DNA of 13,397 nt, taken from IMG/VR virus record IMGVR_UViG_2671180674_000013; one strand, written 5' to 3'. The notes under the pieces were generated by a model. It was not told the origin of the DNA, made no database searches, and saw only the letters and a program-made list of their open reading frames with translations. The stretch comes from a virus. Lineage: Duplodnaviria > Heunggongvirae > Uroviricota > Caudoviricetes. Shown one piece after another: positions 811 through 13,397 of the stretch. Within the stretch, counting starts at the first letter, position 1. Each line of letters starts with the position of its first letter. Made by a program: the position numbers and the translations under genes.

Positions 811-1020
811 ATGGGACTGGATTGCGTGCCTATATCAACCTACTGCCGCGACGCGGGAGAAACGGTTGATGCCGTTAACAAACGGATACAAAGAGGAATC
901 TGGAAAGAAGGGATTCATGTATTAAAAGTCGACGGAGTTAAAGAACGTTGGGTCGACTTAATGGAGATTTCAAAATGGGCAAGAAAGAACAAGGATCATT
1001 ATCTCTCCCTAGAGGAGTAA
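811..1020 (+). CDS. excisionase-like small DNA-binding protein (Xis-like)
   Basis: 69-aa basic protein directly upstream of and overlapping the integrase start, the typical xis-int arrangement. GAGGTGA RBS lies 5 nt before ATG 811. Family assignment is by position and size, not by a recognised motif. Confidence 0.5.
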   Translation: MGLDCVPISTYCRDAGETVDAVNKRIQRGIWKEGIHVLKVDGVKERWVDLMEISKWARKNKDHYLSLEE

Positions 1021-2147
1021 CTATTCGCCAGCATAAAACTGGCAGCACCCTGGTTATCACTTTTACATATAAAGGGGTTCTGTGTCGGGAACCCCTCTCC
1101 AGAATGGAAGTAAATGCGCGCGGCGTGAAGTACGCCGAGCGTCTGCTGGGAGAAATAAAAAATCAGATTATCGATGGTACCTTCGAATATGCAAAATACT
1201 TCCCCAACTCCCAAAAGCTGGAGTTGTTCGGGGGAGTGAAAAAAAACAAAAATATAAAATCTTACCTGGATGAATACCTGATTATCTGCCAGAACCGTAA
1301 CCTGTCACCATCGACAATTAGAGGTTATGAAAAATGCCTGTCGGCGCTGTCAGCATTGCATAAATTTCATGTATCAGAACTGACACCTGCAGTACTAAAA
1401 AACTGGATCGCCAGCAGAAAAACAAAACTGAAAACTATCCGCAATAATCTTTCATTCCTGCGCAGCGCCATAGATGAAGCGGTGACCGATGGTTTGTTAA
1501 CAATAAATCCTGTCACGCTGGTCAGCGCCAGCCGGTATCACGTATTGGACAACACACCAGGCAGTGATGATTACGAGGTCGATCCTTTTACACCAGCGGA
1601 GACGGCAGCAATCTATGACGCCTGTCATTACCCGGAATGGCGAAATCTGTTTCGCTTTGCCTTTAATACCGGACTGCGCAGCTCAGAATTGTGCGCGTTG
1701 CGCTGGACAGATATAGACTTCATCGGCAACACTGCACATGTCCAGACTGCAAGCGTAGTCGGGGTAATCAAAAGCACCAAAACAAAAGCCGGCACTCGCA
1801 AAGTACAACTGAACAACGAAGCACTGGCAGCTCTTCAGGCACAAAAGCCCTACACGGCGCTAAAAAGCGACTTCATATTCAGCGATCCGAAAACTCGCGC
1901 TCCTTGGGCAAACGCAGATGCGATCCGCAAAAAAGCCTGGGTACCGACCCTTAAAAAGGCTGGAGTACGCTATCGCAATCCGTACCAGACACGCCACACG
2001 TTCGCCACTCGGCACATTAGCCAGGGTGTTAACCTGTTCTGGCTTGCTGGTCAGATGGGGCATAAAGGACCGGAAATGCTGTTCAGACATTACGGCTCTT
2101 ACCTTGCAGAATACGATGGAAAAACGGCGATTTCTGCAACCCCGTAA
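975..2147 (+). CDS. int: tyrosine recombinase / phage integrase (lambda-type, N-terminal arm-binding domain)
   Basis: N-terminus LSLPRGVTIRQHKTGSTLVITFTYKGVLCRE resembles the arm-binding domain of enterobacterial prophage integrases. C-terminus carries R...HTFATRH...LAGQMGH...RHYGSY, matching the tyrosine-recombinase R-H-R-Y box. Start placed at ATG 975 (GGAG at 963-966); the ORF track starts earlier at a TTG (948). Confidence 0.88.
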   Translation: MGKKEQGSLSLPRGVTIRQHKTGSTLVITFTYKGVLCREPLSRMEVNARGVKYAERLLGEIKNQIIDGTFEYAKYFPNSQKLELFGGVKKNKNIKSYLDEYLIICQNRNLSPSTIRGYEKCLSALSALHKFHVSELTPAVLKNWIASRKTKLKTIRNNLSFLRSAIDEAVTDGLLTINPVTLVSASRYHVLDNTPGSDDYEVDPFTPAETAAIYDACHYPEWRNLFRFAFNTGLRSSELCALRWTDIDFIGNTAHVQTASVVGVIKSTKTKAGTRKVQLNNEALAALQAQKPYTALKSDFIFSDPKTRAPWANADAIRKKAWVPTLKKAGVRYRNPYQTRHTFATRHISQGVNLFWLAGQMGHKGPEMLFRHYGSYLAEYDGKTAISATP

Positions 2148-2489: not shown

Positions 2490-3680
2490 ATGGCGCGTAT
2501 CACACGCCCCCTCACTAACAATGAAATCCTTAAAGCCAAACCCCGTGAAAAAGACTTCACCCTTCATGATGGTGATGGCTTGTTCTTGCTCGTCAAAACC
2601 ACTGGTAAAAAACTCTGGCGCTTCCGTTATCAACGACCGGGAAGCAGCAGCCGCACAAATTTGAGTCTCGGCTCATATCCTGCCCTTACACTCGCAGCAG
2701 CTCGTCAGATACGCGACCAGCACTTAACCACGCTTGCGCAAGGTATGGATCCGCAGCAGCAACAAGAGCAGGCATCAGAACAACGTCAGATTGAGTTGGA
2801 TAGTATTTTCTCAACTGTGGCCGCCAACTGGTTCAAAATGAAGAGCAAAAGTGTCACTGAAGACTACGCTAAAGATATTTGGCGCTCTTTGGATAAGGAT
2901 GTGTTCCCTGCAATAGGCGCGATTCCTGTTCAGGAGATTAAGGCCAGAACGATAGTTGAAGCGTTGGAACCAATCAAAGCACGAGGTGCATTAGAAACTG
3001 TTCGTCGCTTGGTCCAGCGCATTAACGAAATAATGATTTACGCAGTTAACACAGGCCTGATTGATGCTAATCCGGCATCGGGTGTCGGAATGGCATTTGA
3101 GAAACCGAAAAAGCAAAACATGCCGACACTTCGACCAGAAGAATTGCCAAAGCTCATGCGCTCTTTGGTGATGTCGAATCTCTCAGTTTCGACCCGCTGT
3201 CTAATTGAATGGCAACTCCTGACGCTCGTGCGTCCATCTGAGGCTTCTGGCGCTCGGTGGGTAGAGATCGATCTTGATGCCAGGCTCTGGACAATTCCAG
3301 CAGAGCGGATGAAAGCAAATCGAGAGCATATCGTTCCTTTATCAACCCAGGCGTTAGAAATTTTGGAAGTAATGAAGCCTATTAGTGCTCATCGTGAACA
3401 TGTCTTCCCCAGTAGAAATGATCCCAAACAGCCAATGAATAGCCAGACGGCGAACGCTGCCTTAAAGCGGATTGGTTATGGTGGAAAGTTGGTTGCACAT
3501 GGTTTACGTTCAATTGCGAGTACAGCTATGAACGAGGCGGGATTCAATGCTGACGTCATTGAGTCTGCTCTAGCACACTCTGATAGAAATGAAGTTAGAA
3601 GAGCTTATAATCGTTCTACATATCTAGATAAAAAAATAATACTATTTAACTGGTGGGGTGCACAGGTCTATAAGAAGTAA
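2490..3680 (+). CDS. int: P4-family tyrosine integrase (CP4-57 IntA-like)
   Basis: 396 aa. N-terminal MARITRPLTNNEILKAKP...DGDGLFLLV...KLWRFRY and C-terminal HGLRSIASTAMNEAGF...ALAHSDRNEVRRAYNRSTYL match the conserved blocks of P4/CP4-57-type integrases as I remember them. It sits about 180 bp downstream of the ssrA 3' core, as intA does relative to ssrA in E. coli K-12. Confidence 0.9.
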   Translation: MARITRPLTNNEILKAKPREKDFTLHDGDGLFLLVKTTGKKLWRFRYQRPGSSSRTNLSLGSYPALTLAAARQIRDQHLTTLAQGMDPQQQQEQASEQRQIELDSIFSTVAANWFKMKSKSVTEDYAKDIWRSLDKDVFPAIGAIPVQEIKARTIVEALEPIKARGALETVRRLVQRINEIMIYAVNTGLIDANPASGVGMAFEKPKKQNMPTLRPEELPKLMRSLVMSNLSVSTRCLIEWQLLTLVRPSEASGARWVEIDLDARLWTIPAERMKANREHIVPLSTQALEILEVMKPISAHREHVFPSRNDPKQPMNSQTANAALKRIGYGGKLVAHGLRSIASTAMNEAGFNADVIESALAHSDRNEVRRAYNRSTYLDKKIILFNWWGAQVYKK

Positions 3681-3683
3681 ATA

Positions 3684-3705
3684 GAGCCTGCTGAAATGCA
3701 GGCTC
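3684..3705. terminator. bidirectional hairpin between convergent int and cargo gene
   Basis: GAGCCTGC (3684-3691) pairs with GCAGGCTC (3698-3705) around a 6-nt loop. It lies between the int stop (3680) and the minus-strand stop (3713), with T-rich flanks on both strands. Confidence 0.55.
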
Positions 3706-3712
3706 CACTTCT

Positions 3713-6349
3713 TTATTCAGTAAATATTACATCATCAATATTAAAAGACACTTTAAAATTAGGGTAGAGTTTCAATATTACCTTTTCGAAAATCTCATCA
3801 TCATCATTTAAATTTCTTGCTCTTGAATAAAGACGGTAATTATCTTTTGTTATTTGTTTAATTTCGATATGACAAGCATCATTACTATCAAAGCCTCTAA
3901 AGAAGGTAAAACTATCCAAACTTACAGCATAAATATTATTCAAGGCATTTTCGTCCTCAAAGAAGTAAGTTAACTTATAATCCTTATAAACTTCATAATT
4001 ATAGTTCTTAACTGAATTTTTATTCACAAATAATATATAATTACTCTTCTCTATATCAGCATCATTAAATTTTAAAAAACGCCCTCCTGCTTTGACACAA
4101 TTGAATAATTGCTGCTTATATATAGATATGATTCCATCTCCATATAGCCCAGCACTTGATAAATATGAAACATCATCAACCACGCCTAAAAACTCACGTT
4201 TTGATGGATAAAAAATTAGTTCACTTGTTTTATGGCATATAGGAAGCTTGGATAAATCAACATTTAATGTACTAACAAGCCATTTATTTAAATGTAAATT
4301 CACATCTATTTTAAAGCGTAATACAATGTTCTTATCCATTGTCGATTTTATAACTTTTCTCGTAACTTCTTTGCTCTTATACTCCAACATCATATCAAAT
4401 TTATCTTTAATTAAATCCACTTCCCTTTTCACTTCATTATTATCATACCCCATAGATGTTACCATTATATCTAATTCAGGAGACTCACACGCTTTAATTA
4501 GCAGGTGATAGTCGTTAGAACTAAATCCCACCACATCGACTAATTTACGCCAGTCGTACAAGTATCTCAGGTTAAACCCTCTACGTTTTACAGCCAAAAC
4601 CAATAATATAAAGACTAATGCTCTTATTGCATAGTGATATTCTGTAACAGTATAGGCCTCACCTTCCGGGAGATTTCTAATTCGTTGTTCATCTATACTT
4701 GCACGAATTCTTTCTTCATAAGAACCAAATAACATTCCATATAACTCAACTTCATCTGTATAATTAGAAAAGATAGCAAGATCGCTCCACAATTTGCTAG
4801 CATTAATTATCGCATCGATCTCCACGTCACTTTTATTGTCAGTTTGAATTGCGCTCCAACGCATCTGAAGAACAGTTAAAACAAACCGCTGAATTTTAAA
4901 TATAACAGAAATAATTTCGCTAGCATTTCTTTTTTCTAAATTCAAATACTTGACACTAAGATGCTTAGTTCCTGCATTAAAGTACTCCCCCCAAAACATT
5001 ATCGCACTGTAATCTAACTCATTGCATGCAGATTCAATCAACCCTTTAATGACTTCATAATAGTCTGCGTTATCATCGTGATAACTCAAATAACTATTCA
5101 AGGTATCTTCATGATTTTTGATAAAAGCATTAAAGTCATCTCTATTTAAAGAGAGTTTTGCTATCTGTATTATAAATTCTAACGCGGCAGTTTTCTTTCT
5201 AAGATTAACATTCAACTCAGAAAAATTATTCATTAACTCATCAATAGAATTTTTTTTCACATCCGAATTATTTAAATATTGATATGACAGTCCAAAAGCT
5301 ATATCAAAAGGATATGCTGAAACATCCCCATTAACTAAGCATGAAAAAACATTAATAGCATTTCTTATTGACTCTCTGTTATTTTCCAAAAGAGCACTAT
5401 ACAGATAGATGACAACCCCATTAATTAATTCATCATAATGATTAATCACTTTAAATTCATTATCTGTTATTAACACACCAACAATCAAAGAAGAAACTTT
5501 CTTTGATGATTTTTTATCCAAAATTTTTTTAGCCGTATAATTAACTTCTATAGTTTTGCTTCCACTACTATGCAGGTTAATATTTGGCACAATAATTTCA
5601 TATTCATCCAATAAACCTTTTATCTTCATTCCATTTAAAAAATTGTTTAGTTTATGGAATTTCTCTAAATCTATGTCAACAGTCAAAACATTATCACCCC
5701 CATATATCCCTATGCTATATGGTTGTTGCTTTTGCATTTTCATTTTGCCATAAGAATAATATCCATTTGGTAAATCTCTAACTAGATTTAAAATCTTATC
5801 ATGTAATTCAGAGTTAGCATCCTCTAACAAGGTATAACCCTTGACAAGACTTGAGCAGTGAGATTGTAAATACTCAACAGCGAAGTTCTTATTACGTGAC
5901 ATGTTAAATAATTTCAAGTATGTTTTAAAATACTTCAAAAGAAAATACATTGATAGTAATTGTGACACCACATACTGAGCAATACCACCACCAAAAACAA
6001 AAAAGAAGAATGAAATTATCAAGGTTGATATTGCATCAATACCAAACTGCACAAGGTTGATTTCATCCAGTATCTTTTTCCTAATATAACTTTCCAACGC
6101 ACGAGGTGAGGATTTATTAACAGCATCAACAGTCACACTCATAAAAGTTAATGACAACGCACTGATTGTACCGTGTATACCTAAGGAGACCCCCCAAGCA
6201 CTAAATATCCAATCAAACCCCAATTTTTTTAAATCACTAGAATTAGAAAACAACCACCACCACTCATTTTTACAAAAAAAAACAAGAATACATAAAGTAA
6301 AAAAAATAAAAAAACCAGAGATATAACAAAACAATCTTTTACCCATCAT
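3713..6349 (-). CDS. large membrane-anchored protein of unknown function; candidate anti-phage defence / abortive-infection effector
   Basis: 878-codon uninterrupted frame. Strongly AT-rich: a few sampled lines give roughly 20-32% G+C, against visibly GC-rich neighbours. The first ~145 residues contain 3-4 hydrophobic helices (LFCYISGFFIFFTLCILVFFC, FDWIFSAWGVSLGIHGTISALSLTFMSV, FGIDAISTLIISFFFFVFGGGIAQYVV). The remaining ~730 residues are hydrophilic and Asn/Lys/Tyr-rich with no canonical Walker A, HNH or PD-(D/E)xK motif seen by eye. AAGGA lies just upstream of the ATG. Confidence 0.8.
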   Translation of the reverse strand: MMGKRLFCYISGFFIFFTLCILVFFCKNEWWWLFSNSSDLKKLGFDWIFSAWGVSLGIHGTISALSLTFMSVTVDAVNKSSPRALESYIRKKILDEINLVQFGIDAISTLIISFFFFVFGGGIAQYVVSQLLSMYFLLKYFKTYLKLFNMSRNKNFAVEYLQSHCSSLVKGYTLLEDANSELHDKILNLVRDLPNGYYSYGKMKMQKQQPYSIGIYGGDNVLTVDIDLEKFHKLNNFLNGMKIKGLLDEYEIIVPNINLHSSGSKTIEVNYTAKKILDKKSSKKVSSLIVGVLITDNEFKVINHYDELINGVVIYLYSALLENNRESIRNAINVFSCLVNGDVSAYPFDIAFGLSYQYLNNSDVKKNSIDELMNNFSELNVNLRKKTAALEFIIQIAKLSLNRDDFNAFIKNHEDTLNSYLSYHDDNADYYEVIKGLIESACNELDYSAIMFWGEYFNAGTKHLSVKYLNLEKRNASEIISVIFKIQRFVLTVLQMRWSAIQTDNKSDVEIDAIINASKLWSDLAIFSNYTDEVELYGMLFGSYEERIRASIDEQRIRNLPEGEAYTVTEYHYAIRALVFILLVLAVKRRGFNLRYLYDWRKLVDVVGFSSNDYHLLIKACESPELDIMVTSMGYDNNEVKREVDLIKDKFDMMLEYKSKEVTRKVIKSTMDKNIVLRFKIDVNLHLNKWLVSTLNVDLSKLPICHKTSELIFYPSKREFLGVVDDVSYLSSAGLYGDGIISIYKQQLFNCVKAGGRFLKFNDADIEKSNYILFVNKNSVKNYNYEVYKDYKLTYFFEDENALNNIYAVSLDSFTFFRGFDSNDACHIEIKQITKDNYRLYSRARNLNDDDEIFEKVILKLYPNFKVSFNIDDVIFTE

Positions 6350-6457
6350 TCGTCCTTATGTTTTTTGGGTATTGTAAACCAAAGATAAAACCCTCTATGG
6401 TTTTGCATGCCCTGTATATTGATTTGTGTAAATTAGCTCATTACCAATTAGCGCGCA

Positions 6458-6476
6458 ATGCTCTCCCCGCCACGCC
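6458..6476 (-). other. cos-like site (P2/186/P4-type 19-nt cohesive-end sequence)
   Basis: The minus strand reads GGCGTGGCGGGGAGAGCAT. This matches the P2/186-family cohesive-end sequence as I recall it (P2 GGCGAGGCGGGGAAAGCAC, 16/19; a 186-type variant matches more closely). It lies about 170 bp downstream of the psu-like gene, where cos sits in P4. Confidence 0.5.
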
Positions 6477-6576
6477 TGCCCGCTTAAGAGGTCACTTTTA
6501 ATGCAGGTGCATGAACGGCCTCAGACCGCACCGGTACTGGTGTTGCGTGGGATAAAAAATACGGGGATTTGCATGC

Positions 6577-6610
6577 AAAGCCATGCACCTTATGGATGCA
6601 TGGCTTTTTT
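6577..6610 (+). terminator. terminator-like hairpin (canonical on + strand; may also act on the late operon)
   Basis: AAAGCCATGCA (6577-6587) pairs with TGCATGGCTTT (6597-6607) around a 9-nt loop, followed by TTTTTT to 6610 on the + strand. On the minus strand only 3 U follow the stem. Confidence 0.45.
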
Positions 6611-6648
6611 CGGGAAAAATAGCGGAATTTTCGGTTTTTTTTCGCGTG

Positions 6649-7215
6649 CTACCGTGCGGCCAGTTCTGCACGTCGGCGGGTGTAAATCAGGTTCTGTGCC
6701 GGGGTGAATTTCTGGCGATTATCATCCCGCGAAGCCGCATCAGGCCTGAATCCGATAGCCGTTAAAATATCGCTGTCCTGCACGGAATAATTAATTTTTT
6801 CACCTGCGGCCAGCCACACCGACAGGGCTTCACGCAGATAATCAACCGAGTGCTGCATGGCGCTCTGTTTTACTGCGGGAAGCTGTTCGTGATATCCCAT
6901 CAGCTCAGGTGCCAGCGTGGCGGCCAGCTCCGCGCCGTGCTGCTGCATAAAGTCATGGAGCCGGTTGCGGATACTGATGTGCTGCACCTCCTCATGTGAG
7001 CGGATATAGCGACCGGCGGCCTGATTAATTTCCCACTTTTTCACGTCGATATTGTCGCGCAAATCCTGCATTCTGAGCGGGATTTGTTCGTCACCGGCAA
7101 GGAGCTGTTCACGGTATTCCCGTTCAAGGTCTGCCAGTTCGGCTTTACGTTTCAGCCAGGTGTTTTTGTTCGTCTGACAGGCCTCAAAGGCCTGCTGTAT
7201 GGTCACAGTGGTCAC
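6649..7215 (-). CDS. psu: Psu-like protein (polarity suppression / capsid decoration), by position and size
   Basis: 188 aa, last gene of the minus-strand late operon, immediately before the cos-like site. P4 Psu is about 190 aa and occupies the same position (sid-delta-psu-cos). This is not a verified sequence match. Confidence 0.5.
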   Translation of the reverse strand: MTTVTIQQAFEACQTNKNTWLKRKAELADLEREYREQLLAGDEQIPLRMQDLRDNIDVKKWEINQAAGRYIRSHEEVQHISIRNRLHDFMQQHGAELAATLAPELMGYHEQLPAVKQSAMQHSVDYLREALSVWLAAGEKINYSVQDSDILTAIGFRPDAASRDDNRQKFTPAQNLIYTRRRAELAAR

Positions 7216-7230: not shown

Positions 7231-7470
7231 TTAATGCCGGAACGGCGAGCTGTAGCAGCCCTGTACTTTACGCGGCGGCGGTGGCGTCACCGGGGCGGGG
7301 TCGGGTTTCTCCGGTGCGGCACGTATCACACCGTCAACCGACTCGATGGTGCGGAAAGTGGCCGAGCATTCGATATTGGTACACTGGTGATAACGCTGTT
7401 TGACGTTTTCCGACAGATAACGGCTGGTACGGACGTGCGCGGTATTTTTGCAGAACGGGCAGTGAAACAT
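7231..7470 (-). CDS. ogr: Ogr/Delta-family zinc-finger late transcriptional activator
   Basis: MFHCPFCKNTAHVRTSRYLSENVKQRYHQCTNIECSATFRTIESV carries the C-x2-C...C-x4-C spacing and the conserved RTSRY, RYHQC and CSATF blocks of P2 Ogr as I recall them. Single-domain, 79 aa. Confidence 0.85.
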   Translation of the reverse strand: MFHCPFCKNTAHVRTSRYLSENVKQRYHQCTNIECSATFRTIESVDGVIRAAPEKPDPAPVTPPPPRKVQGCYSSPFRH

Positions 7471-7473
7471 GAT

Positions 7474-8217
7474 TCAGCCCTCTGCCTGTTCGTGGGATTT
7501 TTCTGCCAGTTCAGCGGCAAGTTTCATCCGTCTGGCCGGGCTTCTTAACAGCGCCATATCAACCCCGGTTATGACCGGGCGATTCATGCCCGTTACGGAC
7601 AGGACCGGCTCCTGCTCCATATCAAAATGATACAGGGCTGACTGCATATTCAGGGCATCACCCAGCTCGCGGGTCACGGTCGCACGCGGCGAGGTATCTC
7701 CACTCATTTCCAGCGACCGTATACGCAACAGAAAGGCACGTAACAGTGCAGGATTGATACCGGTCAGCGCCTTCTTCCACTCGCTGTTGGCGTAGGTAGT
7801 GAACGCTTTTTCATGGGCGCTGATATAAGCCGTACCGGAGGAGCATGCGCCAAGCATGGCGTGGCTTTTGTCTTTCTCCAGCTCGGTAATCAGACCGGTG
7901 AACTCATCAGCCAGTTCGCGGCTGGCGATACGTTTGCTGTGTTCAGCTTTCAGTTCAGGAGTGAGGTTGCCGCGCAGAGTTCGAAAGCGGCTGCGCCAGT
8001 CCTGTTCGGCCTGTGCGCTTTCACTGAGGGCGGTCTGTCGTTCCTGCTCACAACGCTGAATGGAAGCCTCAATGTCGCTGAGTTTACCCATGCAGGCCGA
8101 GTGTGCGTCTTTTGCTTCGTTAAGTGCGGCCAGCGCACCGGCAATACGTTGTTCCGCGCCTTCATCCTGTTTACTGATAACGGTCTGCATGGCTTTGATA
8201 ATGAGTTCGGGTTTCAT
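7474..8217 (-). CDS. Sid-like protein (capsid size determination scaffold), by position
   Basis: First gene of the late operon, just upstream of the ogr/delta-like gene. Start placed at the ATG complementary to 8215-8217, which has GGAG 9 nt upstream and gives 247 aa (P4 Sid is about 244 aa). The ORF track extends it to 8283 without an RBS and into the putative promoter. Confidence 0.45.
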   Translation of the reverse strand: MKPELIIKAMQTVISKQDEGAEQRIAGALAALNEAKDAHSACMGKLSDIEASIQRCEQERQTALSESAQAEQDWRSRFRTLRGNLTPELKAEHSKRIASRELADEFTGLITELEKDKSHAMLGACSSGTAYISAHEKAFTTYANSEWKKALTGINPALLRAFLLRIRSLEMSGDTSPRATVTRELGDALNMQSALYHFDMEQEPVLSVTGMNRPVITGVDMALLRSPARRMKLAAELAEKSHEQAEG

Positions 8218-8289
8218 GTTCAGGTTCTCCGTATGTTCAACCTGAAATGATTCTGACGCCTCCTGCACAACAACACGATTCATTGCCGT

Positions 8290-8754: not shown

Positions 8755-9021
8755 ATGCACACCGCTTTTTCTTCCCCGTCTTCTGCCCCTGCCGCGCCGC
8801 TGATGCCGGTTTCTGATACCGTTCACGAGCGCTTTATCCGTCTGCCCGAAGTGATGCATCTGTGCGGCCTGTCCCGCTCGACCATTTACGACCTCATCAG
8901 CCGGGAAGCCTTCCCGAAACAAATCTCCCTCGGCGGAAAAAACGTGGCGTGGGCGCAGTCTGAAATCACTGCATGGATGGCGGATCGCATTGCCGAACGT
9001 AACCGGGGCTATGACGCATGA
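8755..9021 (+). CDS. alpA: AlpA-family phage transcriptional regulator (MerR-like HTH)
   Basis: The segment [47 protein letters not shown] matches the AlpA helix-turn-helix pattern (RLP.V....G.SR.TIY......FP.....G...V.W...EI..W). GAGG lies 8 nt before ATG 8755. Confidence 0.7.
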
Positions 9022-9148
9022 TGATGGCCGCTCAGCAAAAAGCCCCTTTTTCTGGCTTGCTTCTTTTCGCCGTTTCCAGGTATAGTTTTCCCGCTGTCGC
9101 AAAATCGGCAGCCGGGATTGGCGTCCCGTTTACAACATTGGCGACACC

Positions 9149-9171
9149 GGACGCGCCTTGCGTCTTTTTTT
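9149..9171 (+). terminator. short-stem intrinsic terminator in the leader downstream of the alpA-like gene
   Basis: GACGC (9150-9154) pairs with GCGTC (9160-9164) around a 5-nt loop, followed by seven T (9165-9171). The stem is only 5 bp, so it is weak or conditional. Confidence 0.35.
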
Positions 9172-9374
9172 GTGTCTATGCCTCAGCGCATCCATTTTTG
9201 ATCCAGAGATTTATCTGTCTATGGATCCTTCGTGTAATGGTGGCTCAGGCGGGGGCTTCTCACGAAGCGCCGGTTTCCAATGTTGCCGGTTACGCCAACC
9301 CCGTCTGGGCTACCACCAGTGAAATTGGCGTTTCCAGTGGTAGCAGTCACATGCAAACATTGGAGGTTGCCACT

Positions 9375-9569
9375 ATGGCTACGACCCTCACCCCGTCACA
9401 CCCGCAGTTTGTCTTTGTGTTTGCCGCCGTTCGTCGCGCAGACCGTAAACCCCGTATTTGCATGCTGCGCACCGTTGCCGGTGACGAGCACGCCGCACGC
9501 CTTTCCCTCGTTCGCGATTACATCCTCTCGTTCGCTGGCCGTCTGCCGGTTGCGGAGGTGCGCGCATGA
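9375..9569 (+). CDS. hypothetical small protein (64 aa)
   Basis: Strong GGAGG at 9362-9366, 8-nt spacer, ATG 9375. The longer 9018-start form in the ORF track has non-protein-like composition upstream of this ATG. Confidence 0.5.
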
Positions 9570-9793
9570 GACACACCACCATTACTGCCCGTGACCTCGA
9601 ATGTCTGGAGCATATGCGCAATGTCGGCCAGCTCGTCAGCGACCTGATGCAGGTGCAGGACTGCGCCACCGTTCGTCGTGACCCTGCGCAGCAGTTACAG
9701 CTCACCTCCGTGATTTACCTCATGACCGCCCAGCTCGACGGCGTGGTCGAACGCTGCAATCAGCAGTGGCTGACCGGGGAGGGTAACGTATGA
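9566..9793 (+). CDS. hypothetical protein (75 aa), translationally coupled
   Basis: ATGA start/stop overlap with the preceding ORF at 9566-9569; acidic, helical-looking sequence. Confidence 0.5.
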
Positions 9794-10110
9794 AAAAGCC
9801 ATTACCACCCGTATTACGCGCCGCGCTGTATCGTCGCGCCGTGGCCTGTGCATGGCTGACCCTGTGCGAACGCCAGCACCGCTACCCGCACCTCACCCTC
9901 GACGCGCTGGAAAGCGCCATTGCCGCCGAGCTGGAGGGCTTCTACCTGCGCCAGCACGGCGAGGAAAAAGGCCGTCAGATTGCCTGTGCCCTGCTCGAAG
10001 ATTTAATGGAAGCCGGACCACTGAAAGCCGCCCCGTCGCTGTCCTTTCTCGGGCTGGCCGTGATGGATGAACTCTGCGCCCGTCATATCACCGCACCGGC
10101 ACTGCACTGA
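9790..10110 (+). CDS. hypothetical protein (106 aa), translationally coupled
   Basis: ATGA overlap at 9790-9793. Directly precedes the primase gene, in the position of the P4 epsilon/accessory genes. Confidence 0.5.
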
Positions 10111-10121
10111 GGGAAAACACC

Positions 10122-12455
10122 ATGAAAATGAACGTAACGGACACCGTAAAACAGGCGTGCGGCCACTGGCCGCGCATTCTCCCTGCGCTGGGTGTGAAGG
10201 TGATTAAAAACCGCCATCAGTCCTGCCCGGTGTGCGGCGGCTCCGACCGCTTTCGCTTTGACGATAAAGAGGGGCGCGGGACGTGGTTCTGTAACCAGTG
10301 CGGCGCGGGAGACGGCCTGAAACTGGTAGAGAAAGTGTTCGGCATGACCCCGTCAGAGGCGGCCGGGAAGGTGAACGCCGTGACCGGCAACCTGCCGCCG
10401 GTTTCCCCGGAAGTGACTGCGGCCGCAGAGGCCGAAACTGTGGCCGACCGCAAAGCGGCGGCCGCGCTGGCCGTCAGGATCATGGAGAAAACCCGACCGG
10501 CCACCGGCAATGCCTACCTCACCCGCAAGGGTTTCCCCGACCGGGAATGTCTGACGCTCACCGTCATGCATAAAACCGGCGGCGTGACGTTCCGCGCCGG
10601 TGATGTGGTTGTCCCGCTGTATGAGGATACCGGCACACTGGTTAACCTTCAGCTTATCAATGCTGACGGTCTCAAGCGCACCCTGAAAGGCGGTCAGGTC
10701 AAAGGTGCATGCCATACCATTGAAGGGCAAAAACAGGCGGGAAAACGCCTGTGGATTGCGGAGGGTTATGCGACCGCGCTCACCGTGCATCACCTGACCG
10801 GGGAAACCGTCATGGTGGCGCTGTCCTCCGTGAACCTCCTTTCTCTGGCGAGCCTTACCCGTCAGAAGTCCCCGGCCTGTCAGATTGTGCTGGCCGCTGA
10901 CCGTGACCTGAACGGCGACGGCCAGAGCAAAGCCGCTGCGGCCGCAGATGCCTGTGAGGGCATTGTTGCCCTGCCGCCGGTGTTCGGTGACTGGAATGAT
11001 GCGTTTATGCAGAAAGGTGAAGAGGCCACGCGGAAAGCCATTTATGACGCCATCCGGCCACCGGCGCAAAGTCCGTTTGATACCATGAGCGAAGCGGAAT
11101 TTACCGCCATGAGCGCCAGCGACAAGGCCTTGCGGGTGCATGAGCATTACGGCGAAGCGCTGGCGGTGGATGCGAACGGCCAGCTCCTGTCCCGCTATGA
11201 AAACGGCATCTGGAAAAATATCCCTGCCGCCACTTTCTCACGGAATGTGGCTGACTTATTCCAGCGTCTGCGCGCCCCGTTCTCGTCCGGGAAAATTGCC
11301 TCGGTAGTGGAGACCCTGAAACTGATTATTCCGCAGCAGGATACACCGGCACGTCGTCTGATTGGCTTTCGCAACGGGGTACTCGATACCCAAAGCGGCG
11401 TATTCAGCCCGCACCATAAATCGCACTGGCTGCGCACGCTGTGCGACGTGGATTTTACCCCGCCGGTGGACGGGGAAACGCTGGAGACTCACGCGCCAAA
11501 CTTCTGGCGCTGGCTCGACCGTGCAGCCGGTAAAAACCCACAAAAACGCGACGTGATTCTGGCCGCGCTTTTTATGGTGCTGGCGAACCGTTACGACTGG
11601 CAGCTCTTTCTCGAAGTGACCGGTCCCGGCGGGAGTGGCAAAAGTATTCTGGCCGAAATCGCGACCCTGCTCGCCGGAGAGGATAACGCCACGTCGGCCG
11701 ACATCGACACGCTGGAAGACCCGCGCAAGCGAGCATCCCTGATTGGCTTCTCGCTAATCCGTCTGCCTGACCAGGAAAAATGGAGCGGTGACGGCGCAGG
11801 ACTCAAGGCAATCACCGGCGGCGATGCGGTCTCGGTTGACCCGAAATACCAGAACCCCTATTCCACGCATATTCCGGCTGTAATTCTGGCCGTGAACAAC
11901 AACCCGATGCGCTTCACCGACCGCAGCGGCGGCGTGTCGCGTCGCCGGGTGATTATTCACTTCCCGGAGCAGATTGCCCCGGAGGAACGCGACCCGCAGC
12001 TCAGGGATAAAATTGCGCGCGAGCTGGCCGTCATTGTGCGCCAGCTTATGCAGAAATTCAGCGACCCGATGACCGCGCGCACACTGCTCCAGTCGCAGCA
12101 GAACTCCGACGAGGCACTCAGCATCAAGCGCGATGCTGACCCGACGTTTGATTTTTGCGGCTATCTGGAAATGCTGCCGCAGACCAACGGGATGTTTATG
12201 GGGAATGCCAGCATCATCCCGCGTAATTATCGTAAATATCTCTATCACGCGTATCTGGCCTATATGGAGGCTAACGGCTACAGGAACGTGCTCAGCCTGA
12301 AAATGTTCGGGCTGGGGCTGCCCATGATGCTGAAAGAGTACGGCCTGAATTATGAGAAGCGGCACACCAAGCAGGGGATACAAACCAATCTGTCGCTGAA
12401 AGAGGAAAGCTACGGAGACTGGTTGCCGAAGTGCGATGACCCCACAGCAACATAA
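10122..12455 (+). CDS. P4 alpha-type bifunctional primase/helicase
   Basis: 777 aa, the same length as P4 alpha. N-terminal zinc-ribbon C-P-V-C-G-G...C-N-Q-C-G, a Toprim-like LWIAEGYATALTVH...AADRD segment, and a Walker A GPGGSGKS (from VTGPGGSGKSIL) in the C-terminal helicase half. GC-rich, with iterons following. Confidence 0.9.
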   Translation: MKMNVTDTVKQACGHWPRILPALGVKVIKNRHQSCPVCGGSDRFRFDDKEGRGTWFCNQCGAGDGLKLVEKVFGMTPSEAAGKVNAVTGNLPPVSPEVTAAAEAETVADRKAAAALAVRIMEKTRPATGNAYLTRKGFPDRECLTLTVMHKTGGVTFRAGDVVVPLYEDTGTLVNLQLINADGLKRTLKGGQVKGACHTIEGQKQAGKRLWIAEGYATALTVHHLTGETVMVALSSVNLLSLASLTRQKSPACQIVLAADRDLNGDGQSKAAAAADACEGIVALPPVFGDWNDAFMQKGEEATRKAIYDAIRPPAQSPFDTMSEAEFTAMSASDKALRVHEHYGEALAVDANGQLLSRYENGIWKNIPAATFSRNVADLFQRLRAPFSSGKIASVVETLKLIIPQQDTPARRLIGFRNGVLDTQSGVFSPHHKSHWLRTLCDVDFTPPVDGETLETHAPNFWRWLDRAAGKNPQKRDVILAALFMVLANRYDWQLFLEVTGPGGSGKSILAEIATLLAGEDNATSADIDTLEDPRKRASLIGFSLIRLPDQEKWSGDGAGLKAITGGDAVSVDPKYQNPYSTHIPAVILAVNNNPMRFTDRSGGVSRRRVIIHFPEQIAPEERDPQLRDKIARELAVIVRQLMQKFSDPMTARTLLQSQQNSDEALSIKRDADPTFDFCGYLEMLPQTNGMFMGNASIIPRNYRKYLYHAYLAYMEANGYRNVLSLKMFGLGLPMMLKEYGLNYEKRHTKQGIQTNLSLKEESYGDWLPKCDDPTAT

Positions 12456-12490: not shown

Positions 12491-12507
12491 TCTGACCATT
12501 GCCACAG

Positions 12508-12792
12508 GGTGAACAATCCACTGTTCACCCTTCACCGTATATTCACCCTGTATCACCATGAAATTATTGATAAAAAACCAGAGGTGAACAGTGTGAATAG
12601 TAAAACCTGAAAAAACTTTTTATCCCTCCACCACATCGCCTGACCGGGCGCATCCAGAGCGAGAAAAAAACACAAAGGTGAAGAGTCGACTGTTCACTCT
12701 TCACCAACTCATCACCATTTATCTTTATGATTTAAAATAGAAAATAAGCATGGTGAACAGTGTGAACAGTTAAATGCAAAAAAACTTTTTTT
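12508..12792. repeat. iteron cluster of TGTTCACC/GGTGAACA octamers with A/T-tract elements (P4 ori-like)
   Basis: GGTGAACA at 12508-12515, 12583-12590 and 12752-12759. TGTTCACC at 12522-12529. Near-copies at 12531-12537, 12541-12548, 12677-12684, 12691-12698, 12700-12705 and 12761-12769. Inverted repeat GGTGAAGAGT (12677-12686) / ACTCTTCACC (12696-12705). A5-6CT5-7 tracts at 12609-12623 and 12776-12792. Confidence 0.7.
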
Positions 12793-12858
12793 GAGTATGA
12801 TGTAGCTCTCCATACTTTATGGAAAGATCCAAGTTAGCTGAAAGCCTCACCAAGACAG

Positions 12859-12877
12859 CACGTTAATTCGTAACGTG
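12859..12877. promoter_or_regulatory. inverted repeat (operator-like) just upstream of the terminal AT-rich ORF
   Basis: CACGTTA (12859-12865) and TAACGTG (12871-12877) flank a 5-nt spacer, about 20 nt before ATG 12897. Confidence 0.3.
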
Positions 12878-12896
12878 TTAAGCAAAAGGGAATTTT

Positions 12897-13397
12897 ATGG
12901 GGACTACTTTGCTTCAAGAAAACCATGAAAAAATTTTAAACATACTAAATGAAGCTAAAGATGTGGCGCTAAGGTATTACAAATTAACCAATAAGCCTCT
13001 CGGAATCACTGGAGAAATAGCTGAACATGAAGCTGCAACTCTTCTCGGGTTGTCACTATGTTCAGCACGTCAGTCCGGATACGATGCGACTGAGATTTTG
13101 GACGGGAAAGAATATAGAGTTCAAATCAAAGGTCGATATATGCCTGATCCTAAAAAAGTCTCTGCGAGAATTGGTGCTATTGATATATCTAAGCCATTTG
13201 ATTCTGTTCTTTTAGTTTTGCTTGATGAAAATTATGATGCTTTTGCCATGTATGAAGCATCACGAGATGTAGTAGTCGCAGCTCTTCAAGCTCCGGGGTC
13301 AAAGTCTAGAAATGAGCGAAATCAACTAGGCATAGCAAAATTCAAGTCCATTAGCCGTCTCCGCTGGAGCAAGGTTGCTGAACCTGAGATCCTTTAA
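12897..13397 (+). CDS. hypothetical protein (166 aa), AT-rich accessory gene at the alpha-proximal end of the element
   Basis: Complete frame from ATG 12897 to TAA 13395-13397, with an AGGGA-type RBS upstream. Composition is markedly more AT-rich than the adjacent primase gene. No family recognised. The spaced acidic/basic residues (GEIAEHE...GYDATE...RVQIKGR) are weakly reminiscent of a PD-(D/E)xK-like core, which is speculative. Confidence 0.6.
   Translation: MGTTLLQENHEKILNILNEAKDVALRYYKLTNKPLGITGEIAEHEAATLLGLSLCSARQSGYDATEILDGKEYRVQIKGRYMPDPKKVSARIGAIDISKPFDSVLLVLLDENYDAFAMYEASRDVVVAALQAPGSKSRNERNQLGIAKFKSISRLRWSKVAEPEIL

Follow-up and report, generated by a model that had tools for sequence, protein, structure and literature searches.

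We analysed a 13,397-nt stretch of viral DNA (IMG/VR virus record IMGVR_UViG_2671180674_000013, Caudoviricetes; hereafter the window) that contains a P4-type satellite element carrying a single cargo gene for an 878-amino-acid (aa) protein (3713..6349, minus strand). We propose that this gene encodes a single-polypeptide inner-membrane protein that acts against phages, as part of inter-virus competition, and that belongs to an uncharacterised Enterobacterales family. We give this reading a probability of about 50%, and the mechanism set out below is our proposal. The reading is based on the residence of the family in P4 and P2 slots, which are established reservoirs of anti-phage systems, as the sole substantial open reading frame (ORF). 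It is further based on purifying selection, which leaves a transmembrane (TM) module with polar intramembrane invariants as the most conserved part, and on the absence of an enzymatic domain in 21 family members. Additionally, AlphaFold2 (AF2) models of the protein were confident, and two programs run on two of these models assigned an HK97-like fold to the C-terminal domain.

The cargo gene is intact, real and under purifying selection. In a six-frame ORF list, 3713..6349 appears as one ATG-initiated frame of 878 codons with an uninterrupted translation. It is the only cargo gene in a slot whose borders are int, a tyrosine integrase gene of the P4 family (2490..3680, plus strand; Pfam domains Arm-DNA-bind_3, Phage_int_M and Phage_integrase), and GGCGTGGCGGGGAGAGCAT, a cos-like 19-mer of P4-type satellites (6458..6476, minus strand, reading 6476-6458). 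Among the constructs that Rousset et al. cloned, a P4-like one from Klebsiella has this variant of the 19-mer. The cargo therefore lies between psu/cos and int, the position that defines P4 hotspot cargo in Rousset et al. (2022). A GC-rich hairpin, terminator-like on both strands (3684..3705), separates the convergent int and cargo genes. The GC content is 0.28-0.35 (about 30%) across the cargo gene, versus 0.54-0.62 from psu through alpha. The original prediction, which had been made from this DNA alone, described an intact 878-codon minus-strand gene of foreign composition between a P4-type int and cos. The ORF list, the translation, the Pfam match of int, the 19-mer and the GC values agree with it, and the P4 context that it claimed was recovered in full (int, cos, psu, delta, sid, CI RNA, ash and alpha).

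The start codon is ambiguous, as translation from ATG 6349 gives 878 aa and translation from a second ATG at 6346 gives 877 aa. An AAGGA Shine-Dalgarno sequence (6353..6357, minus strand) is spaced 3 nt from ATG 6349 and 6 nt from ATG 6346. Numerous database copies are annotated as 877 aa beginning with MGKRL, which corresponds to the second ATG, and 6346 may therefore be the real start. The 110 nt upstream of the gene are conserved among P4 alleles, and a sigma-70 promoter scan of the upstream region gave scores no better than those of shuffled sequences.

The ratio of nonsynonymous to synonymous substitution rates (dN/dS) of the window gene was 0.28 against an allele of 94% identity and 0.17 against an allele of 63% identity. 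Further family pairs gave 0.09-0.17, and the whole range of 0.09-0.28 indicates purifying selection. The extreme AT content and a few split database copies might suggest AT-rich filler DNA in which a long frame is open by chance or is what remains of a decaying gene. However, AT-rich DNA is rich in stop codons, so that an open frame of 2.6 kb would be unexpected in it, and the dN/dS values, the homologues that keep their invariant residues down to 15% identity and the confident AF2 models all oppose such an origin, which we consider hardly credible. The homologue family and the dN/dS values together effectively refute a non-functional ORF.

The protein is identical to WP_124064400.1, which carries the database name 'hypothetical protein'. 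A word-indexed homologue search, in which low-complexity words were saturating, returned only the alleles of 94% and 63% identity, even with a 21-sequence profile. An exhaustive HMMER search of 1.84 billion cluster representatives revealed a family of 29 clusters at 50% identity, about 20 of which are full length (860-960 aa), with E-values down to 1e-175 and full-length homologues as distant as 15% identity. The window protein had been called an orphan; given this family, it is not one. Members also match two phage protein families, PHROG 18005 (21 of 21 aligned members; best E 1.9e-105) and PHROG 10073 (19 of 21; best E 3.3e-230), for which the window protein gave E-values of 1.4e-22 and 1.7e-5, respectively. 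Both PHROGs are annotated as function unknown, and the public names of the family members are all 'hypothetical' or 'uncharacterized'.

The carriers belong to the Enterobacterales (Escherichia, Citrobacter, Kluyvera, Rahnella, Serratia, Edwardsiella, Pantoea and Enterobacter), and the P2 allele is frequent in the O103/O45 lineages of Shiga toxin-producing E. coli (STEC); its cluster has 1,192 member sequences. A tblastn search of the INPHARED phage collection gave no match to the P4 or the P2 allele, and the family was seen only in prophages and satellites, plus one chromosomal-island copy. Split or truncated cargo copies (209+602, 506 and 370 aa) occur in E. coli strains other than ETEC1732 (L001).

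No significant match for the window protein was obtained in Pfam, NCBIfam or PADLOC, and no match to PDB sequences was obtained with either a single-sequence or a profile query. Walker A, HNH and HExxH motifs are absent from the window protein. In addition, Pfam and PADLOC scans found no domain in any of the 21 family members, including nuclease, NTPase, TIR or kinase domains. Matches to AvrM_N, AbiEi, iSTAND and Phytoreo_P8 were dismissed as single-member noise. The expectation that no known catalytic or defence domain would be found was thus upheld by the Pfam, NCBIfam, PADLOC and PDB sequence searches.

To place the family in its genomic context, loci were classed from Pfam annotation, called-gene tables and tblastn searches whose queries were the P4 core proteins of the window and the P2 core proteins of one P2-like locus (L005 in our numbering). 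Five divergent alleles, at 100%, 94%, 63%, 33% and 27% identity, occupy the P4 slot between psu/delta and int (the window allele, also in L001 and L006; L022; L002; L007; and L024 from Rahnella). At least 16 loci have a relative of about 15-19% global identity at the tin/old locus of P2-like phages, the slot that lies between Q, the portal gene, and the replication gene A (L004, L005, L008-L013, L016-L021, L023, L025/L026 from Serratia and L027 from Edwardsiella). In these slots of 3.0-3.8 kb, the family gene is the sole substantial ORF, and the slot GC content is always about 0.35, versus about 0.5 in the flanks. Recurrence of the gene in hotspots was a check set beforehand by the original prediction, and the five P4-slot alleles and the P2-slot loci bear it out. 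The defence interpretation is plausible, and this recurrent location strengthens it.

A conserved partner gene was looked for and rejected, since the small ORFs adjacent to the family gene in some P2 slots are either backbone genes (ogr/delta-like) or unshared. In several P2 slots, a small conserved ORF separates the cargo gene from the portal gene; where annotated, it encodes an Ogr/Delta-like zinc-finger activator on the opposite strand and is therefore regarded as a backbone gene and not as a partner. An ORF of about 80 aa lies immediately downstream of the family gene in L008, L009, L019 and L020, and further such ORFs were observed in L023 (9056-9331) and L027 (9838-10128).

The single Pantoea copy (L003) is found in a chromosomal AT-rich island beside an insertion sequence 3 (IS3) transposase. 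At this Pantoea allii locus (5893-7005 and 14451-15699), the family copy lies in a variable region together with an AAA_21/AAA_15 (OLD/AbiEii-like) ATPase gene between cysS and folD, the IS3 transposase and a DUF3289/DUF943 pair. This variable region may be a small defence or toxin island.

In a neighbour-joining tree, all P4-borne alleles form one deep clade separate from all P2-borne alleles, which suggests that the two lineages split long ago. Such a deep split is consistent with a 2026 report of no recent exchange of defences between P2 and P4.

The P4 and P2 slots were both defined as hotspots of anti-phage systems by Rousset et al. in 2022 (PMC9122126), and both branches of the family can be traced in the supplement of that paper. 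WP_124064400 is listed as 'hypothetical' in Table S1A and appears in Table S1B as P4 system #71 (no Pfam, 7 occurrences, '4 TM' according to Phobius). P2 system #27 of Table S5B (no Pfam, 131 occurrences, '3 TM') has a sequence identical to the L012 protein and is homologous to the window protein. The two systems are separate, unnamed entries that are not linked to each other there. The gene had been put forward as undescribed, which does not hold for the exact protein and its relative, both of which were already catalogued; it does hold insofar as the family was neither named nor recognised as one. What is new here is that the P4 and P2 entries are united in a single deep family, that its topology and pattern of conservation are described, and that a capsid-like domain is predicted.

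Table S2 of PMC9122126, which lists the evaluated constructs, was searched by protein motif, and the family motif is absent from it. K-mers of three P4 alleles are likewise absent from the full-length synthesized fragments of the 2026 follow-up. Beyond the table entries above, no mention of WP_124064400 or of PHROGs 18005 and 10073, and no experiment on the family, was found in the literature searched, including the supplements of the 2022 and 2026 hotspot papers. In the 2026 study, six of eight randomly chosen unknown P4 loci protected against phages, which gives a high prior for defence.

This base rate also bears on the possibility that the gene is a non-defence accessory ('moron') gene that alters host physiology or fitness (envelope, colonisation or stress) or serves the P2/P4 life cycle, the slot being merely permissive. 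P2 hotspots do hold partition systems and toxins as well, the family has no similarity to known defence proteins, and it is common in the STEC O103/O45 lineages. Nevertheless, the gene is the sole cargo in both hotspots across at least eight genera and takes the place of known defence systems at the same position, and tested unknowns of the slot have a high rate of defence activity. A function in the life cycle is itself unlikely because the gene is present in under 1% of elements. Taken together, we consider an accessory role improbable.

Hydropathy analysis identified four TM helices at about residues 7-25 (TM1), 47-75 (TM2), 99-119 (TM3) and 123-146 (TM4), where the original prediction had seen three or four. 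Over 38 unique members, the mean number of lysine plus arginine residues is 4.8 at the N-terminus, 1.4 in loop 1, 3.6 in loop 2 and 0 in the TM3-TM4 turn, and the segment after TM4 is basic. By the positive-inside rule, this distribution indicates four TM helices with the N-terminus and the C-terminus inside (N-in/C-in) and a cytoplasmic body of about 730 aa. On these sequence grounds, the protein is predicted to reside in the inner membrane. The AF2 model built with a 21-sequence alignment was confident (mean predicted local distance difference test, pLDDT, 83.7; predicted template modelling score, pTM, 0.67), and its helical membrane domain spans about residues 1-192.

The four-TM module (residues 1-160; 5870..6349, minus strand) is the most conserved part of the family. 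The frequency of the top residue is 0.56-0.70 in TM2-TM4 versus 0.30-0.45 elsewhere, and the dN/dS of the module is the lowest in the protein (0.04-0.15, compared with 0.11-0.63 for residues 161-299, the highest, and 0.12-0.31 for the C-terminal domain). Invariant residues are H59-G60-T61, A64 and F69 in TM2, L110 in TM3, G120 and G122 in the periplasmic turn, where they form a GxG motif, and Y126 and Y140 in TM4. The His-Gly-Thr triplet lies in the middle of the membrane, TM2 is conserved on every face, and TM4 carries a Tyr/Ser stripe.

In the body, DSSP analysis of the AF2 model delimits a small alpha/beta insert domain (residues 196-296; 5462..5764, minus strand), which has the lowest conservation of all regions (about 0.31) and evolves fastest. 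It is followed in the AF2 model by a large all-helical cytoplasmic region (residues 300-695; 4265..5452, minus strand), for which only generic solenoid or helical-bundle structural matches were obtained. The sole invariant or near-invariant residues of the body are R497, E510, W521, Y537, F541, K717, R718 and Y807.

This anatomy could also serve superinfection exclusion (Sie) at DNA entry, in which an inner-membrane protein blocks or diverts genome injection by competitors without killing the cell. The TM module would then engage the inner-membrane entry route or the tape-measure or ejection proteins of the phage, following the logic of T4 Imm, P22 SieA and the positioning of SNIPE. Prophage and satellite carriers would gain from excluding competitors, and an inner-membrane location, a conserved TM module and the lack of a catalytic domain would all suit such a role, for which SNIPE, a membrane-positioned single protein active during injection, provides a precedent. 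On the other hand, Sie proteins of the classical type are small, plugging an entry route would not call for a conserved 730-aa cytoplasmic body that includes a capsid-like domain, and no nuclease that could destroy incoming DNA was found in the domain scans. Exclusion at entry is therefore, in our estimate, unlikely.

The C-terminal alpha/beta domain (about residues 697-878; 3716..4261, minus strand) has a predicted HK97-like fold of the capsid/encapsulin type; in the AF2 model it spans about residues 710-877. In structure searches, its predicted fold matched HK97-fold capsids, encapsulins and satellite capsid remodellers almost exclusively, including HK97 gp5, a P2-family capsid protein, a capsid protein of capsid-forming phage-inducible chromosomal islands (cf-PICIs) and SaPIbov5 Ccm. 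Searches with the full-length structure returned only solenoid or helical-bundle noise, except for phi29 capsid protein matches, which covered about 240 columns in Foldseek at a probability of 0.99-1.0 and E-values of 7e-3 to 4e-2. The fold class rests on the agreement of two programs on two predicted models, with moderate scores, and we regard an HK97-like fold of this domain as more probable than not. K717 and Y807 are invariant in the domain, and R718 is nearly so.

At the sequence level, none of 20 C-terminal fragments matched a capsid Pfam family at E <= 10, and hhalign comparison with the P2 gpN alignment gave probabilities of 0.3-0.4%, equal to those of the negative controls. When five family regions were aligned by hhalign with P2 gpN, Q, O, P, A and M and with P4 Sid, Psu and alpha, all probabilities were at most 2%. 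Any relation to the HK97 superfamily would be one of fold only, and we do not claim descent from a capsid gene.

A capsid-like domain might suggest that the protein is a membrane-tethered decoy, which would tie up the scaffolding or major capsid proteins of competitors, or assemble together with them, and so poison head assembly without damaging the membrane. Such a decoy would extend the capsid-manipulating repertoire of P4 (Sid and Psu) and of other satellites (SaPI Ccm and PLE TcaP). However, the fold similarity is moderate and model-based, with no sequence relation to P2 gpN, and a decoy leaves unexplained why the TM module is the most conserved part. Stoichiometric action would also need high expression, which is unlikely because the gene is AT-rich and probably silenced. 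We therefore regard a decoy as quite doubtful.

Returning to the anti-phage membrane protein that we favour, its mode of action might be that of a fused sensor and effector. The AT-rich composition suggests that H-NS might keep the cargo gene quiet until it is needed. The variable cytoplasmic body could serve as the sensor for a component made by the phage, and since the C-terminal domain is predicted to be HK97-capsid-like, this component would plausibly come from head assembly, such as capsomers in the course of assembling or a protein that helps to assemble the capsid. The effector would be the conserved TM module, alone or once oligomerised, which might conduct ions or otherwise compromise the inner membrane, so that infection is stopped according to an abortive-infection logic. 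A more elaborate version, which we think has only a small chance of being correct, is that a captured phage-capsid-fold domain was fused through the helical body to the four-helix membrane module to give a single-protein immune device. This device would either recognise the assembling heads of competing phages and open a pore or itself assemble, through the capsid-fold domain, into rings of five or six subunits that resemble capsomers and arrange the TM helices as a channel, with anciently diverged versions kept separately by the P2 helper and the P4 satellite.

If active, the protein would found a new single-gene defence family, present in helper and satellite of the classic P2/P4 pair alike and with no detectable relation to PADLOC 2.0 systems or Pfam. 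The conservation of the TM module exceeds that of the rest of the protein, and its invariant intramembrane His-Gly-Thr is easily mutated. The family may also be a case of a capsid fold recruited into a cellular or mobile-genetic-element immune protein. Moreover, helper and satellite apparently inherited versions of one cargo family separately and over a long time, which bears on the recent claim that exchange of defences between P2 and P4 is exceedingly rare.

The backbone of the window is complete for a P4-type element (psu, delta, sid-like, C4/isrK CI-RNA, alpA, ash, DUF5375 and alpha). Beyond the cos-like site lie the P4 core genes psu (6649..7215, minus strand; polarity suppression/capsid decoration; PF07455, E 1e-87), delta (7231..7470, minus strand; Ogr/Delta zinc finger) and a sid-like gene (7474..8283, minus strand), the latter two of which are conserved in L002, L006 and L007. 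The P4 left operon (8755..12455, plus strand), identified by profile matches, comprises alpA/vis, the CI RNA region, ash/epsilon, DUF5375 and the primase-helicase gene alpha (10122..12455, plus strand). Rfam matches above the gathering score to C4 antisense RNA, isrK and c4-a1b1 mark the P4 CI immunity-RNA region (9080..9320), which overlaps the start of ash as given in the ORF list. Upstream of int, a terminator-like sequence of 33 nt (2348-2380) recurs with 76% identity in the CI-RNA/isrK region (9145-9177).

At positions 1-2147, the window holds one end of a lambdoid-type prophage that adjoins the P4-like element in tandem; this part contains DUF5406 (1-378), DUF4222 (287-652) and a second, unrelated tyrosine integrase gene (948-2147, plus strand). 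The same tandem arrangement occurs in E. coli ETEC1732 (L001, 15900-22900), where the P4 backbone past delta is wrecked by IS21- and IS3-family insertions and the int-cargo-psu-delta segment is intact. Beyond alpha, positions 12500-13397 form a second AT-rich stretch (GC about 0.37) with a DUF6998 ORF that runs past the window end (12897-13397) and an imperfect 114-nt direct repeat (12508-12621 and 12677-12790, 71%). This stretch, which may be either the edge of the element or another variable slot for cargo, was matched in full by only one of 5,426 complete E. coli genomes, whereas the adjacent alpha end was matched by 921. No att direct repeats were found within the window.

With regard to known systems, the predicted C-terminal domain invites comparison with HK97-fold capsid proteins. 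Satellites encode capsid-fold proteins that interfere with helper capsids, such as SaPIbov5 Ccm and the cf-PICI capsid protein. The family domain differs from them in being fused to a membrane protein and in its length of about 180 aa, which no complete HK97-fold protein is as short as. Its sequence resembles neither capsid families nor P2 gpN, and nothing points to shell formation.

Among membrane-associated and slot-borne defence systems, several candidates were rejected. The original prediction could match the protein to neither Zorya nor Kiwa, and a search for their defining domains and partner genes led to the same result. For Zorya, there was no PADLOC or Pfam match to the MotAB-like stator ZorA/ZorB, and no ZorC, ZorD or ZorE partner genes were present. 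An AbiEi match in PADLOC (E = 0.0011, 16 bits) was limited to one of the 21 members, and no AbiEii partner gene was found. The systems named in 2026 (Crouga, Bandua, Aernus, Toga, Reve and Hailong) have domain contents that differ from that of the family.

Kiwa resembles the family in combining a four-TM inner-membrane protein, KwaA, with a large cytoplasmic component and in occupying the same P4 slot (system 14 of Rousset et al., PMC9122126); it is proposed to sense events at the membrane (PMC11785009). In contrast, Kiwa consists of two genes (KwaA and KwaB, the latter with DUF4868), whereas the family has one polypeptide. It was rejected because PADLOC gave no KwaA or KwaB match in the 21 members (E <= 0.01), DUF4868 is absent and the slot holds a single gene.

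SNIPE has one poorly conserved TM helix, a periplasmic N-terminus, DUF4041 and a nuclease domain of the GIY-YIG type (PMC13190303). Unlike SNIPE, the family has four highly conserved TM helices and a predicted N-in topology, and neither DUF4041 nor GIY-YIG was detected in the Pfam scans of the 21 members. This contrast with SNIPE, whose anchor is poorly conserved and whose activity lies in its nuclease, suggests that the membrane part of the family is more than a tether.

A parallel in logic may be offered by abortive-infection proteins with TM effectors, which include RexB, Cap15 and other TM effectors of CBASS, Pycsar PycTM, retron 2TM effectors and P4 Gop. A relation at the sequence level was checked through PADLOC and Pfam. 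The proposed shared logic is a conserved membrane module that collapses membrane integrity upon activation, and in P4 itself this slot is filled by Gop, which has two TM helices. No cyclase, CARF/SAVED or partner gene was found in the Pfam and PADLOC scans or among the slot ORFs. These TM effectors are small proteins that respond to a nucleotide signal or to a sensor encoded apart from them, whereas the family would fuse sensor and effector in one protein of 878 aa.

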